DNA of 52,862 nt, the filler included, from Perkinsus olseni (Eukaryota): NCBI GenBank assembly GCA_013115125.1. It is 2 parts of 2 records of this genome, joined end to end, with 100 filler letters (N's around TTAATTAATTAA, not from the genome) between each part and the next. Parts side by side here need not be neighbours in the genome. Positions count along the whole stretch, not along the records: positions 1 to 26,401 come from JABANN010000483.1; 1 more part is not named here. One strand, 5' to 3'. A model generated the notes under the pieces. The model did no database searches and had not been told where the DNA came from. It saw only the letters and a program-made list of their open reading frames with translations. This document shows, one piece after another, positions 2,221 through 26,226 of this stretch; position 1 is the first letter of the stretch; the number at the start of each line of letters is the position of its first letter. The position numbers and the translations under genes were made by a program.

Positions 2221-4044
2221 AAATGCTATTCGTCCTCACAGCATCTATCAGGGATATTTCATAAGCTCCTCAGTGATGGACGTGGCTAGAACGTCGAGGC
2301 CCCCCTGTTGTCCGACTTTTTCTTTCTCGGTTGGCTGCCTTGCTCACCATTGGAAAACCTGGCAGACGGCGCTGCTCTGATTTTCCCCAGTTGCGCAACT
2401 GCTCTCCGATGGCGGAATGAGGCAACAATTGAGAGATGTTCCCTCCCTGTATGGTGAAATATCGCTGCTCATTATGTAGCATTCACTAGTCGGAATAGTT
2501 TATATCGGCATCAATCATGTTTTTTTCGTCTGTAGTGACGCTCTAGGTGATGCGGAGTCCGCACTGCGAAAGTTTTGCTCGGGCCGAGCCATGGCCACTA
2601 GTCCCACTTTTAGCTTTTAATCGGGTCGTCGACGGCCTGGACTACATTTGATCGCAGTGCTTCGAGGCTCTGCATTCAAGTCCCCTCCATCGAGTTAGAT
2701 AGTACTGCGTTCAGTCCATCGAACATTATAATGAATCTCGTACCGCATCCAATGCAGCGCATCGAGAAATCGATTGTACGCATGGTACAGCATGGCAGCC
2801 GGGCTGCCGTAAATGCCTCAGTGGGCTCCATCAGAACTTCTGATTCAGAAGTTAGGGGCTCCGGAAGAGTTTGACCGCGAGTAACTGTACCGGCACTAAG
2901 GTCCCCAGGGTCTCGCCTCTCAAGTTGAGAGTCTCAACAGATGGTCTCGCGGATAGACACATCCCGAGAATCATGGACATGCCGGCGACATAATGGCGCC
3001 GGCAGCGCCGTCACTGTCTCGCGGGTCGGGCTAATACAACGGTGTATCATACACCGTGTATGCATGCGTGTCAGCCAGGCTTTGCCTGTACAATTCGCAC
3101 TCACTTGATTCCACCTTCCACGATTAATGTACAGTGCAGGGAGCTCCGATGCGCAGCCTGCGAATATGCAATATTTCCCTCTTTCTAGCAGTCTCCTTGT
3201 CTCGCCGTGAGTTCGTACTCGGCCGCACGCATAAGTTCAGACGTCCTTCGCCACCAGTGATCGTATACGTGACGGAGAATTCAATTCTGGCGGGCTTCAA
3301 TATGAGTGGAAGCTGCAAGTCAGTGCGAGCTTGCAGCGCTGATAGTCCTCATCCGGATCCTACCAGATCTCGACTGGACCGTCGTGATCATGCCATTGCC
3401 GGTGTTGATAGCTCTGCTGCTTAGAGTATTCCCGGTTATTGGCGAGAATTGCAATTGAAGCAGATTGCCCTTTCAGCGTGAGGAAGCGGGAGCAGCGCTC
3501 ACAGCATTTATCTATCTCTGTTTCTCATCAGGATCTCATCTCCTTCTCTTACAACTATGCATCTGAATATCCTCGTGTTCGCTGCATCTCTAGCGGCGAG
3601 CTTCGGTGACCAAGACAGATTCTGTCTGAAGATAGGGAGGGCAGGGGAACTTCTGTCTGACAGAACGTTGCGGTTAGGTACGAGTGCTTCGGTGTCCCCA
3701 TCTCAATCCTCATAGTCAGAGGTTTCATTCTCGACTTCTCCGTCGCTTCGTACGTGCGTACGCTCTCTGTACGCTTTCGTGCTTCGTGCGTCCAATACGG
3801 TATTGGCAATACCCCTCGCAATCGTGTGCATTCTTCGTCATGTTATTGAAAGCAGGTTCCACATAGCTTCACAATGAGATCAGTCCCCCCATTCTTTGAA
3901 CCCTGTCTCAGAAGCGACAACAAGCTCGCAAGTCTGTTGTACCTCAGCCTCAGCCACTTGGGTACCACGATAAAAGCGGTCACAACATAATTGCTCTTCA
4001 GCCGCTGAAATTCAGACTATCGACAGCCCCTGTCTTTTCCCTCA

Positions 4045-4197
4045 ATGCGCTTCGCTATCCTGATGTTCGCTGCTACCCTTGTTGCCACCTTGAGTATCAA
4101 AGACGAGGCCGCGCCGGACACTTCTAACTTTAAGTTGGGCGGATGCTCCCAGTGCCTTTACCAATGTTATTGCGATACTCACGGCTGTCGTTGCTGA
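4045..4197 (+). CDS. Secreted six-Cys peptide, type B copy 1 (50 aa)
   Basis: MRFAILMFAATLVATLSIKDEAAPDTSNFKLGGCSQCLYQCYCDTHGCRC*. Confidence 0.85.
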   Translation: MRFAILMFAATLVATLSIKDEAAPDTSNFKLGGCSQCLYQCYCDTHGCRC

Positions 4198-4855
4198 CGA
4201 AAGCGTCATTCGTCCCAGCAGCATCTATAGGAGGTGCATCAATCACATGATGTCAAGGGGTTGGCCACCGTGTGTTGAGCTCTCCGGGCCTCAACACGTA
4301 TTAGGCAGTGCGTAACTGATGTACAACTGTAGGTAGGCATTGTGTCCACTTAGTTAGCCCCACTTAAACGGTGCCATCCACAGAACGCTAGTCCTAGGTG
4401 TTAGAAAGTACTTGGATGGTTTCGACCGTGGTTGCTCAACTCCAACTCAACCGAACGGTGATCCCATTGAAGTTCTTCATAAAGTTGACTTGACCATTTT
4501 ACCGTCGCACCCACTACGGGGTTGAGTTCCACGCAACGATTCGAAAGGATATCACTCGACCGATATCACAGCCCACAGAAAAAATGACATCATAATTCCT
4601 GAAAAAATATCAAGATAACATAATAACACGACCGGAGATGATAAACAATAAGCTCGATGGCAACGGAGGTACAGCCACGGCGGACGGTGCACAAGCTTAT
4701 GCAGTTGATGGAGGATGCTAGAGACCCACAACCCATCAAAGACCCCCGCAAAGGTGCATTTCCGACGGTGGATTATCGTGTTCACACCGGCCACGGATTC
4801 AAAAGGCATTTTTGTCAAGAAGATGTGATTAGCCAATGAAAGGCGTTCTCCCCGA

Positions 4856-24350: not shown

Positions 24351-24554
24351 ATGCGCTCCGCTTTCTTCGCAATGGCCGCTACTTTAATGGCGGCCTTTAG
24401 TGCCCAAGAAATCGTCTCACAAGACAGTCCCCTGTTTCCACGGAAACTTAATGGGAACTCCCTCGGGGGCGGATGCTCCGGATGCTCAGCAGAAGAGTGC
24501 TACTGCGTTACATTCAACTGTTTCTGCTACAAGAAGCCGACAATCCTCCTATGA
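24351..24554 (+). CDS. Secreted six-Cys peptide, divergent copy (67 aa)
   Basis: MRSAFFAMAATLMAAFSAQEIVSQDSPLFPRKLNGNSLGGGCSGCSAEECYCVTFNCFCYKKPTILL*; same leader (AATLMA), RKLN, GG-C and Cys spacing. Confidence 0.85.
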   Translation: MRSAFFAMAATLMAAFSAQEIVSQDSPLFPRKLNGNSLGGGCSGCSAEECYCVTFNCFCYKKPTILL

Positions 24555-26226
24555 GGATTATATGTACTTTACGTTTTCCATTAATACCTTCTACTGACGA
24601 CAACCCGTATCTTTCCACACGCACTGAACGTGGTTGCGTTAACAAGTGAATCTGCTCAGGAGAGCGGCAGGAGAGTTGATCTCCTCGTGAATCTCCTCAA
24701 CTTGAGGACCTCAAGTGAATTGATTATCAGCACATACTGCCCTCGTATGGGTTGCCTCTGACCCACAGTACTACAGAGAACGTTGTAGAATTCTTGGAAA
24801 AGCAAGGACCCTTGCTTAAGAGTTCAAGATCGGCGCGAGGGTAATGGAGGAATTGCAAGAGTGCAAGGGCAGGCTGATAGTTGGTTATGATGACGATGGC
24901 TATGATGATGATGGTGTTCGTGATCATGATGATGTTACGGCACGTGCCTGCATTCCTCGTTACTAACTAGGTCTAAGAGTAGTGGTTACGATACCTGTTT
25001 ACTTCATTCGATTGCTAGTTGTATCTGAGACTGTCCGATTCCGGTTTTCTGCAGCCAAAGGACGGGAGCGTCGAGTTAGCGATGCTTTGGGTGGGTACAG
25101 TGGATATACCGATACCGGAGCAGAAGAGATTGAATACCCATGCTAACCAGGTCCCCGAGGGTGCTTTCTTGGATTTCGGGAATCACCCGTGATCAGAAAT
25201 CCCCAATTTTCCAGTGTATGATCCGCTAACTCGAACGCTGCGTCACGAGCATCCTAAGATTCTTAGGATGAATGCTTCCTCCTGACTTCCCCACGTTTGA
25301 TGAGCTCTCGTCTAGAAGGCTCTCGCTGTGTAACATACTCCAAGTGAGCCCAAACCTTCCTTCTATGAGCACACAGCTTACTGAGAAAGTGATGGGCTGT
25401 TCAGTAAATCGATCCCGGGACTCGGTATCAATCCCAGGATTGTCCGACGCTTTTTTCCTGAAGGTGGTGCGTTCCACCACTCAACTTTGGCGACAGGGAG
25501 TTGAGAACTCATCCGCTACGAGGAGACAGACTACGCTAAGGTCGTGGGAAGTCGTACTCGATAGTAGTGCGATTCTGGTATCCGGACTGTTAATGCAGTA
25601 CTTGTGTTCGATACGTTTGGCAGAGAACAGTAGTGCTATTGATGCGGCTGGTGACTTTAACTCTCCCTCCCTCCAGTGGCAGTACCGGGGATCAGCCCGT
25701 ATGACCTCCCAACTGTCGTGGAAAACATACCGACTGCGGGGCGTTGCTTCACTTGAGGAGGTTCATGTTCGTAGTTGCATCGACATAACCGTACAGCCGT
25801 ATTTGTCGAGTATTACGGTCGTTTAGTGGCCAAGTATCTGCTCACGTCAGGCTTAGTACATACGATTAGTACAAGATGTATACCACCGTTCTGATATGCC
25901 GACTGAACGGGAGTTTGAGGATCACTGTTCTACATCGCGTGGTTAACTCTGGCATCTGTTGAGCAAAATGCTTTCGTTCCGCTGAATCCCGTGTCGTTGT
26001 TATCAGGTCAGCAAGAGTCCTACGTCGCTCAGCGCTATTCGTGCTCCAAATAATTCATCGCTAATGCTCGTCGCGGGATGCTTACATCATCAGCTGTCGG
26101 ATACCCTCAGGGAATTATCTCGGTGTTGGAGTGGTAGGCCCATCACGAATTCGAGCAATACCAGCCGAGTTCTGCTTCAGATGCCCACAAACGTGTCAAA
26201 TGAATCCAGACACAGGAATTAAAATC

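Follow-up and report, generated by a model that had tools for sequence, protein, structure and literature searches.

Stereotyped 7-8-7 scars in a Perkinsus olseni genome window are likely excision footprints of a transposon with hAT-type chemistry

A window of the Perkinsus olseni genome (the whole stretch of DNA analysed, 52,862 nt in two contigs) carries a stereotyped 22-bp feature, the 7-8-7 scar, which at each site is built from that site's own local 8-base word. The scars are real, and we consider it likely that they are healed donor sites, the footprints left where a cut-and-paste DNA transposon with hAT-type chemistry was excised; the agent itself is inferred. We found no published account of these Perkinsus scars in the literature searched.

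Scar format, sites and decay

The whole window was scanned for exact sites of the form (k-1),k,(k-1), with expected counts for each k taken from 20 order-2 Markov resimulations. At k=8 there were 26 exact sites against 0.0 expected, and no exact site was found at k=7 or at any k from 9 to 14. The count at k=4 was near chance (22 against 13.0 expected), while k=5 gave 0 (0.8 expected) and k=6 gave 1 (0.05 expected). When mismatches were allowed, 7-8-7 sites with 0, 1, 2 and 3 mismatches numbered 26, 9, 16 and 28 across the window, against 0, 0, 0.03 and 1.6 in 30 simulations. The first contig (1-26401) holds 25 exact sites, or about one per kb, and 48 with 1-3 mismatches (9, 15 and 24 at 1, 2 and 3, respectively). 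The footprints are clustered, with 7 of 24 spacings below 130 bp (p about 0.01). A control set of 19 unrelated eukaryotic metagenome contigs (140,054 bp) yielded one site at ≤1 mismatch, in a contig of 18% GC. The first contig is a gene-poor stretch and the second is gene-bearing.

A first-pass annotation, made from the sequence alone, had listed 13 exact sites and five near sites with one or two mismatches, had stated that the 8-mers all differ, and had predicted a sharp peak at k=8. Each of these claims held: all 13 sites are exact, the near sites have 2, 2, 1, 2 and 1 mismatches, the 8-mers of all 26 exact sites are distinct, and the peak is confined to k=8. Its exact count was too low, however, as the scan added 13 sites, starting at 3792, 7481, 9338, 10277, 17629, 18358, 18462, 18515, 19013, 19763, 22214, 23717 and 27719. 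Its density of one scar per 1.3 kb is likewise an underestimate by the full first-contig counts.

Comparison with paralogues inside the window shows what a scar adds (coordinates run along the window, and no strand is assigned to any scar). The exact scar at 2830-2851 (ATCAGAAG) has a paralogue near 7750 in which the 8-mer is intact and 14 bp are missing; the scar at 2917-2938 (CTCTCAAC) also faces a 14-bp gap, and the paralogue of 3792-3813 (CCAATACC) is 14 bp shorter at the site. Intact 8-mers are likewise found near 8225 for the scar at 3041-3062 (GGTGTATG) and near 3078 for that at 8247-8268 (GGCTTTGC). Because the paralogues hold the intact 8-mer, each scar is an insertion of 14 bp. Gaps in the comparison of diverged paralogues form a secondary peak at this length (8 gaps of 14 bp, none of 12 bp), and the one 28-bp gap falls at a double scar, 15828-15866, where two scars overlap (ATACCGGT, exact, and CCGGTATT, 1 mismatch). 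The scar at 8787-8808 (TTTGAATA) lies within a complex insertion of about 43 bp relative to its paralogue. Thus, the first-pass claim of a fixed +14 bp scar held, as did its predicted indel peak at 14, albeit as a secondary peak.

At two 36-bp double scars the same 8-mer was struck again. Inspection of the mismatch-scan output parsed the first, at 10270-10305, as an older scar (CTACGTAT, 1 mismatch) whose middle 8-mer contains an exact scar at 10277-10298 (ATACGTAG). The second, at 19756-19791, is an older, decayed scar with an exact one, at 19763-19784 (GTTTCTTC), in its middle 8-mer.

The scars are also present in independent sequencing data, namely short-read-derived contigs from four runs in two studies, which match them base for base. 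Runs X4 and X5 belong to a second study; their contigs cover 19 of the 21 exact scars in 7400-26400 with 0 gaps, so the scars are not an assembly artefact. The scars at 7481-7502 (TAAGTGAT) and 9338-9359 (TATGAAAG) lie within gap-free contigs of X1, X4 and X5, and that at 17629-17650 (AGAGTTTT) within the X4 and X5 contigs covering 16074-19347 (0 gaps). In sample X7, which is 1-4% diverged, a single contig (7964-8352, 0 gaps) shares three scars: those at 7993-8014 (GAACCGTG) and 8048-8069 (CTATCCAG), both exact, and the one at 8247-8268. Both the k=8 scan and independent contigs support the exact scars at 18358-18379 (CTGGAGTG), 18462-18483 (GCATGCAC), 18515-18536 (CGCGGGAC), 18936-18957 (GGGTTTGA), 19013-19034 (AGTTCAAG), 22214-22235 (CTTGTACC), 22710-22731 (ATCCTCAT), 22820-22841 (CCCCAGAG), 23461-23482 (GCCCAGTT), 23717-23738 (TCAACAGG) and 24694-24715 (TCCTCAAG). 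The sole exact scar of the second contig, at 27719-27740 (AATGGGGG), lies about 1 kb upstream of a subtilase ORF. No 14-bp polymorphism is listed among the four runs, and no filled site, with an element still in place, was seen in any of them.

The scars decay by mutation. One substitution in the middle 8-mer is seen at 5698-5719, 5898-5919, 6171-6192, 13394-13415, 14483-14504 and 17334-17355; a single mismatch is present at 5660-5681 (which forms a pair with 5698-5719, spanning 5660-5719), 7595-7616, 14233-14254, 17037-17058, 17245-17266, 19534-19555 and 23011-23032, and two at 20154-20175. The first-pass annotation had read the scars as evidence of very heavy insertion-excision cycling. This was not shown: because the scars are fixed and partly decayed, what is demonstrated is accumulation over the long term.

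Variant footprints and palindrome geometry

Eight further sites depart from the 22-bp format yet keep its centres: each has a pair of odd palindromes, one centred on the complement of base 8 and the other on that of base 1 of a single 8-mer. These sites show longer arms, of up to 17 and 11 nt and reaching into flank sequence, or filler DNA. Both 8-nt palindromic runs are retained at 3613-3665 (AGACAGAA), with 23 nt of filler between them, whereas the site at 9859-9882 (TCCCTCAG) is an out-of-register join with arms of 7 and 5 nt. Arms of 14 and 10 nt extend into the flanks at 17810-17853 (CGTGAATT), and those at 18810-18868 (ACGATGGG) measure 17 and 11 nt with 1 nt between. Filler is found at 13551-13587 (CATCTGAG; arms 5 and 10 nt, 5 nt filler), at 21802-21848 (GATCAGCG; arms 6 and 6 nt, 21 nt filler) and, in the gene-bearing contig, at 33476-33533 (CAGAATAT; arms 8 and 8 nt, 24 nt filler). 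The footprint at 17691-17744 (AATATGTG) has 26 nt of filler (17706-17731), 24 nt of which is an inverted copy of 17789-17812, DNA 51 bp away. With the centres of the canonical scars but long arms or filler, the eight variants fit only the model of two flank hairpins joined through the inverted target duplication.

A search for this generalised footprint gave 34 matches at length 8 and none at length 7 or at lengths 9-12, nor any in 10 simulations. A zero-offset, even-palindrome footprint of the RAG/Transib kind was absent at lengths 6-10 and matched once at length 5 (0.1 expected). Similarly, positions 1-28000 hold 93 palindromes whose arms of ≥7 nt flank a 1-nt centre, against about 2 expected, whereas those with a 0-nt centre showed no excess (3 against 1.7). 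The geometry is thus exclusive to an 8-bp length and a 1-nt offset. The 26 canonical scars among the 34 exact footprints are one product, that of an in-register microhomology anneal adding 14 bp. Short heterogeneous footprints were nearly absent from the window, with at most three candidates, which is near chance.

Proposed mechanism, search for the agent and rival explanations

The route that we propose is inferred. An element would insert and duplicate an 8-bp target K = k1..k8. As the footprint geometry suggests, the transposase would then nick, one base into each flank, the strand that bears the element's 5' end, and the 3'-OH would be joined to the other strand, sealing each flank into a hairpin with its apex at the complement of the base adjoining the element (k8' on the left, k1' on the right). 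The one-base offset of the first nick was reportedly described by Zhou et al. 2004, for which we have only indirect support, via PMC5873905. The host would cut the hairpins open on the 3' side of the apex, at a distance of several to many bases; for such distal opening the 5-17 nt arms of the variant footprints are direct evidence. The resulting 3' tails, ending ...k8'..k1' on the left and ...k1..k8 on the right, would anneal in register through the inverted target duplication, after which flaps would be trimmed and gaps filled. The predicted product is k1..k7 + k8'..k1' + k2..k8, the empty site plus 14 bp, and any overlapping pair of opening positions gives this same product, which would account for the stereotypy. 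In a minority of events, out-of-register joins or copied filler would result. The first-pass annotation had proposed such hairpin annealing, and this part is supported: written out, the route reproduces the 22-mer exactly. Two features of microhomology-mediated or templated end joining are seen, microhomology joints (26/34) and the templated inverted copy of 24 nt. The near-absence of the short footprints usual for plant and Candida hAT elements is unusual, and a special repair bias is therefore needed.

That the agent belongs to the hAT superfamily is favoured only by a modest margin and remains unproven, with no transposase or element identified. No transposase domain was found in the 88 ORFs (≥75 aa) of 1-28300 or in the 77 ORFs (≥90 aa) of 28300-52862, and no hAT domain (DDE catalytic core or C-terminal hAT dimerisation domain) was found in these 165 window ORFs or in the 10 largest. 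A search for resident elements with at least 10 of 12 matches between terminal inverted repeats (TIRs) and an exact 8-bp target-site duplication (TSD) gave 0 in the window and 0-1 in 10 simulations; this search was limited to 52.8 kb and has no bearing on the remainder of the genome. Nor did we find any report of a hAT transposase in Perkinsus in the literature searched. Hence the hAT part of the first-pass annotation stays an inference. Of 52 symmetrised observations of the target words, 22 have T at position 2 or A at position 7, where 13 would be expected (binomial p=0.0047). This trend towards nTnnnnAn, the stated Hermes target preference (PMC10368747), is in the right direction but weak, and the preference is not common to all hAT elements.

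Three other classes of agent were tried and did not fit. For a Mutator-like agent (duplications of 9-11 bp, some of 8-9 bp, flank hairpins and mostly precise excision; PMC5499845), there were zero footprints at lengths 9-12. For a Transib/RAG-type agent, the even-palindrome model gave the counts reported above; the Transib duplication is 5 bp. The P element makes an 8-bp duplication, but it is cut with a stagger within its own ends, so that bases of the element stay behind and the flanks form no palindromes. The scars hold only flank-derived sequence, as palindromes, and their 8-mers all differ.

Among the rivals, the one that survives best, though we think it unlikely, is another flank-hairpin transposase with 8-bp duplications, for instance a Mutator-like one or one of an undescribed superfamily, acting by the same footprint logic. 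In its favour, Muta1 makes 8-9 bp duplications and flank hairpins (PMC5499845), several families of Dada, distant relatives of hAT, MuDR and P, occur in Perkinsus marinus (PMC3706591), and no hAT gene was found in the window ORFs. Against it, footprints are absent at 7 and 9-12, although Muta1 gives 8 or 9 and Dada 6-7; Muta1 excision in yeast is >90% precise (PMC5499845); and the nTnnnnAn trend agrees with hAT.

A host process using a transposase-derived enzyme is very unlikely. It would act by hit-and-run, with insertion and immediate excision, or by programmed removal of elements from the sequenced nuclei, so that elements would never persist in sequenced DNA. The contrast between at least 34 excision footprints and no resident copy in 52.8 kb speaks for it, as do the re-hit 8-mers of the two double scars and the footprint clustering. 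However, local hopping of an ordinary element also explains the clustering, the scars decay by ordinary mutation, and their presence in diverged samples means that they are inherited relics and not regenerated each generation.

We regard as similarly improbable a transposon-independent polymerase template switch or fold-back, in which 8 opposite-strand bases are copied and the polymerase returns one base back. Short switch events are known to create inverted copies, and one filler is a templated inverted copy. This model nevertheless gives no reason for k=8 alone (0 at 7 and 9-14), for the exclusively 1-nt centre or for the retention of two direct copies of the word; it offers no pairing to guide the return jump, and arms of 17 and 11 nt with two separated inverted copies misfit a single switch.

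An assembly, polishing or library artefact, conceivable in that the window is two contigs concatenated with an artificial linker, is all but ruled out by the base-for-base matches in the independent contigs, by the absence of scars from the control contigs bar the single site noted above, and by decayed copies and paralogue comparisons that behave as real mutations.

Significance and comparison with known systems

Excision footprints are usually few, heterogeneous and drawn from reporter assays, whereas here there are dozens per 26 kb in a wild genome. Because the scar has one fixed format, it can be searched for by rule alone, so that past cut-and-paste transposition can be counted and dated even without a surviving element. 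The scars are an example of DNA gained by the passage of transposons, not their retention. They also record, in nature, which repair of double-strand breaks is chosen by a poorly studied alveolate parasite of molluscs (hairpin opening at a distance from the apex, annealing through microhomology, and templated filler), and this yields a testable prediction of the end-joining gene set. A bolder reading, which we consider possible, is that Perkinsus, and perhaps perkinsids and dinoflagellates, repairs hairpin-capped breaks almost exclusively by distal opening and in-register annealing. If so, each visit of a hAT-like element would deterministically add 14 bp, the genome would be a fossil record in which tens of thousands of transposition events could be counted and dated, their elements being gone, and transposon traffic rather than retention would measurably grow non-coding DNA (roughly 3-4% of the first contig). 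Bolder still, and merely not excluded, is the idea that the agent is no ordinary element family but a transposase retained by the host, domesticated or acting by hit-and-run.

The class of mechanism is already known, and the finding extends current understanding without overturning it. The closest likeness is to Ac/Ds (hAT), especially in Saccharomyces cerevisiae, where the added palindromes have the complement of the element-adjacent base at their centre and the point of hairpin opening lies away from the apex, with arms of up to 20 nt (PMC5873905). Ac/Ds also makes an 8-bp target duplication and shows microhomology at most joints (88-89% in yeast; footprint work of Weil & Kunze 2000, Yu et al. 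2004 and Lazarow et al. 2012, as summarised in PMC5873905). Published footprints are heterogeneous, however, with 28 types among 128 Candida events (PMC5873905) and 'perfect' footprints in 8 of 94 in rice (PMC4423477), whereas in Perkinsus one product dominates, short footprints are nearly absent, and the record is natural, fixed and dense. Hermes, the housefly hAT (PMC10368747), shares the 8-bp duplication and the flank hairpin chemistry, and its nTnnnnAn preference is the one towards which the Perkinsus target words tend; it differs in that the Perkinsus window has no identified transposase or element and only a weak target preference. Microhomology-mediated or templated end joining likewise uses microhomology, removes flaps and copies filler from nearby DNA, as at 17706-17731, but the Perkinsus route is inferred from footprint features alone, its enzymes not being identified. 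Finally, in V(D)J P nucleotides and Transib, off-centre opening of flank hairpins also adds palindromes; there the hairpins lack the 1-nt offset and the palindromes are even, whereas Perkinsus shows no even excess.

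A footprint format at a single word length

The first-pass annotation had reported units of 22 bp, each derived from one 8-mer and reading k1..k7, k8'..k1', k2..k8, where the prime denotes the complement (hereafter 7-8-7 scars). All of its coordinates were correct: the 13 of 13 sites described as exact have no mismatch, and the 5 of 5 described as near have one or two. The observation is therefore confirmed, and the present counts enlarge it. Scanning the window for the general (k-1),k,(k-1) arrangement gave 26 exact sites at k=8, versus 0 in 20 order-2 Markov resimulations, with none at k=5, 7 or 9-14 and a single site at k=6; the 22 sites at k=4 are near chance (13.0 expected). 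Decayed copies are also abundant, with 9, 16 and 28 sites carrying one, two and three mismatches where simulation predicts 0, 0.03 and 1.6; many of the two-mismatch sites carry one substitution in the middle 8-mer, which is counted in two comparisons. The scar words are all different, with a mean G+C content of 49%. As a negative control we used 19 unrelated eukaryotic metagenome contigs (140,054 bp), which contain one site at no more than one mismatch, in a contig of 18% GC.

All but one of the 26 exact sites are in the first contig (1-26401); the exception, at 27719, falls in non-coding sequence at the beginning of the second contig (26502-52862). About 66 canonical-type sites (at most three mismatches, none overlapping an exact scar) occupy roughly 3-4% of the first contig. 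Exact scars are clustered, 7 of 24 spacings being shorter than 130 bp (p about 0.01), a pattern that could reflect local reinsertion or insertion hot spots; Ac is known to show local reinsertion. Within the 36-bp structures at 10270-10305 and 19756-19791, a young scar lies within an older one, precisely at its middle 8-mer. Because the middle 8-mer is the sole intact copy of the word within a scar, this arrangement suggests target re-use.

The geometry of the scar can be stated more generally as two overlapping odd palindromes, centred on the complements of k8 and k1. The first 28 kb contain 93 odd palindromes (1-nt centre, arms of at least 7 nt) where about 2 would be expected, and even palindromes show no excess. 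We then searched for any pair of odd palindromes (arms of at least 4 nt, separation up to 90 bp) in which the centres and inner arms of both imply one and the same word. At word length 8 this rule has 34 matches, comprising the 26 canonical scars and 8 variants, versus 0 in 10 simulations; word lengths 7 and 9-12 gave none over the window, nor did the zero-offset (even) version at lengths 6-10. In variants 18810-18868 and 17810-17853 the two arms, which measure up to 17 and 11 nt, extend into the flanks. Others retain both inverted copies, separated by 5-26 nt of filler; the filler of variant 17691-17744 is 26 nt long, and 24 nt of it repeat 17789-17812 in inverted orientation. Such footprints cannot be produced by simple triplication of an 8-mer, and they match two independently opened flank hairpins.

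Two further features were recorded. In five of the nine one-mismatch scars (10284, 14233, 15845, 17037 and 19534) the mismatch involves an end position of the 8-mer, where k1 or k8 is compared with the central base of the other palindrome; roughly a quarter of mismatches would be expected there, and variation in nick position or heteroduplex repair may be responsible. Separately, some 21 odd palindromes with 7- to 10-nt arms (e.g., at 864, 13488, 14283, 16057, 20716 and 25260) stand alone, outside all canonical, decayed and variant footprints. They could be one-sided footprints whose other flank has been lost, and those at 16057 and 20716 are old, since they are common to paralogues.

Scars are 14-bp insertions in real DNA

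Part of the first contig is made up of paralogous segments that have diverged to 66-82% identity (1586-21497), for example 1586-2725, 6384-7180 and 11915-13132; 2990-3571 and 8173-8767; and 15479-16865 and 20215-21497. Where a paralogue covers a scar (2830, 3041 and 8247) it carries the plain 8-mer, and the overlapping pair 15828/15845 appears as a 28-bp gap. Global alignments of nine paralogue pairs yielded 32 gaps of 1 bp, a number that declines to 2 of 11 bp and none of 12 bp before climbing to 3 of 13 bp and 8 of 14 bp, with a single gap of 28 bp; three of the 14-bp gaps fall at decayed scars. Each 7-8-7 unit is thus an insertion of 14 bp. At 8757-8808 there are about 43 more bases than in the paralogue at 3535-3612. 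They hold successive palindromes, the last being the exact scar 8787-8808, and we regard this as a complex event that is incompletely parsed.

Because the paralogues are just 66-82% identical while many scars are perfect, the scars must be much younger than the duplications. Under steady formation and decay, sites with 0, 1 and 2 substitutions would be expected in roughly equal numbers. Exact scars are somewhat over-represented, which indicates sustained and probably recent activity. The very heavy insertion-excision cycling proposed in the first-pass annotation goes further than this, as the decay classes do not require extreme rates.

Six DNA sequencing runs from two studies contain the region. 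Contigs from two runs of the other study (X4 and X5) cover 19 of the 21 exact scars of 7400-26400 with no gaps and 0-3 differences, and a contig from a more divergent, low-depth sample (X7; 5 substitutions in 389 bp) carries scars 7993, 8048 and 8247 without a gap. These independent runs show that the scars are real DNA. No 14-bp indel was found among those differences of four runs that were examined (X7 covers only 22 of 30 bins); the scars observed are accordingly fixed in this set of samples, and polymorphism is not excluded.

Sequence context and search for the agent

The two contigs are separated by an artificial linker at 26402-26501 (44 N, TTAATTAATTAA, 44 N), so it is not established that the scar-rich half adjoins the gene-rich half. 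Pfam searches of 88 + 77 + 10 window ORFs matched only subtilase, kinesin, BET/bromodomain, Pirin and, weakly, MutS_V. The second contig has eukaryotic genes for a subtilase, a kinesin and a BET bromodomain protein (100% identical to a Perkinsus olseni protein and 81% to one from Perkinsus marinus), along with a Pirin-like ORF. Rfam and ARAGORN found two tRNAs in the window, both on this contig and on the minus strand: tRNA-Gly(TCC) at 33990-34061 and tRNA-Ser(AGA) at 50932-51016. Some 460 bp separate the tRNA-Gly gene from variant footprint 33476-33533. The same contig contains a 420-bp duplication of 82% identity (37599-38019 and 38972-39389) and, upstream of the subtilase ORF, 3.5 copies of a 23-bp tandem repeat (28160-28239). 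A metagenome scan for relatives with the BET protein had no match, and a kinesin query recovered only distant kinesins (28-59% identity), whose contigs served solely as the negative control for scar counts.

Apart from the weak MutS_V match at 170-469, the 88 ORFs of the first contig (at least 75 aa) contain no recognisable protein family. The largest, at 1685-2377, has one weak relative, a P. olseni hypothetical protein, in a collection of 5.8 billion proteins. The paralogous segments likewise match no Pfam family, and we consider 1586-21497 a lineage-specific, gene-poor region of unknown nature. Short segments at 14374-15641, 22616-24517 and 25786-26400 are high-copy, at about 5-75x local contig depth in the compared runs. 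They include a 107-bp module (14927-15033 and 23578-23684, 97% identical) and one of about 85 bp (15274-15363 and 23039-23122). Read through, these segments show no obvious inverted termini, and their repeat type is unknown.

No transposase domain was detected among the 88 + 77 + 10 ORFs, and a scan of the window found no resident element with inverted termini (TIR) and an 8-bp TSD. Full-text literature searches returned nothing on hAT elements or excision footprints in Perkinsus; related findings were limited to Dada elements in P. marinus (PMC3706591) and to transfected DNA integrating at transposable-element sites (PMC7200600). Classical end joining has been lost in many parasites (PMC6635534), a study whose main text does not mention Perkinsus.

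Proposed flank-hairpin excision and its alternatives

The first-pass annotation attributed the scars to hAT-type excision through flank hairpins. Our data support the mechanics; the family membership of the agent is still inferred. hAT transposases make 8-bp duplications, with a preference for nTnnnnAn in Hermes (PMC10368747), and the first nick is reportedly offset by one base (Zhou et al. 2004). In the proposed scheme, the left flank hairpin would read k1..k7 k8' k7'..k1' and the right, on the bottom strand, k8'..k2' k1 k2..k8. A nick 3' of each apex would leave two 3' tails ending in parts of k8'..k1' and k1..k8, which are complementary. Annealing of overlapping tails and fill-in would then yield exactly the observed 22-mer. 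That product would be the same at any nick positions giving overlapping tails, which, we infer, is why the scar is stereotyped. The 26:8 ratio of canonical to variant footprints, the long arms and the templated filler together point to a resection/microhomology route, not to apex-proximal opening with direct ligation. Among 52 observations of target words, 22 carry T at position 2 or A at position 7 (p=0.0047), a trend that fits nTnnnnAn weakly.

The alternative that survives best is a different flank-hairpin superfamily, which remains possible; Mutator-like and Dada elements, however, make duplications of other lengths, at which the window has no footprints. The absence of resident copies would be accounted for by a hit-and-run or programmed-excision system of the host, but we think such a system unlikely, as the scars show ordinary mutational decay and are common to different samples. 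Polymerase template switching is less plausible still, leaving unexplained the one exclusive length, the 1-nt centre and the long-arm variants. An artefact is all but ruled out by the independent data.

Excision through flank hairpins remains our preferred reading, and it can be compared with known systems. Short footprints of the classical hAT kind, with 1-7 palindromic bases in total, have at most 3 candidates in the window, near chance, and perfect TSD-TSD tandem 8-mers number 2 versus 0.8 expected. A '0,0' class returned by the short-footprint search consisted of plain tandem 6-mers, for the most part coding repeats, and was dropped. The window thus nearly lacks the short footprints that are usual in plants and Candida. 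In yeast, arms reach 20 nt and microhomology is found at 88-89% of joints (PMC5873905). Events of this kind are already known, whereas the uniform 14-bp format, together with how dominant and how dense it is in the genome of a wild protist, appears not to have been described.
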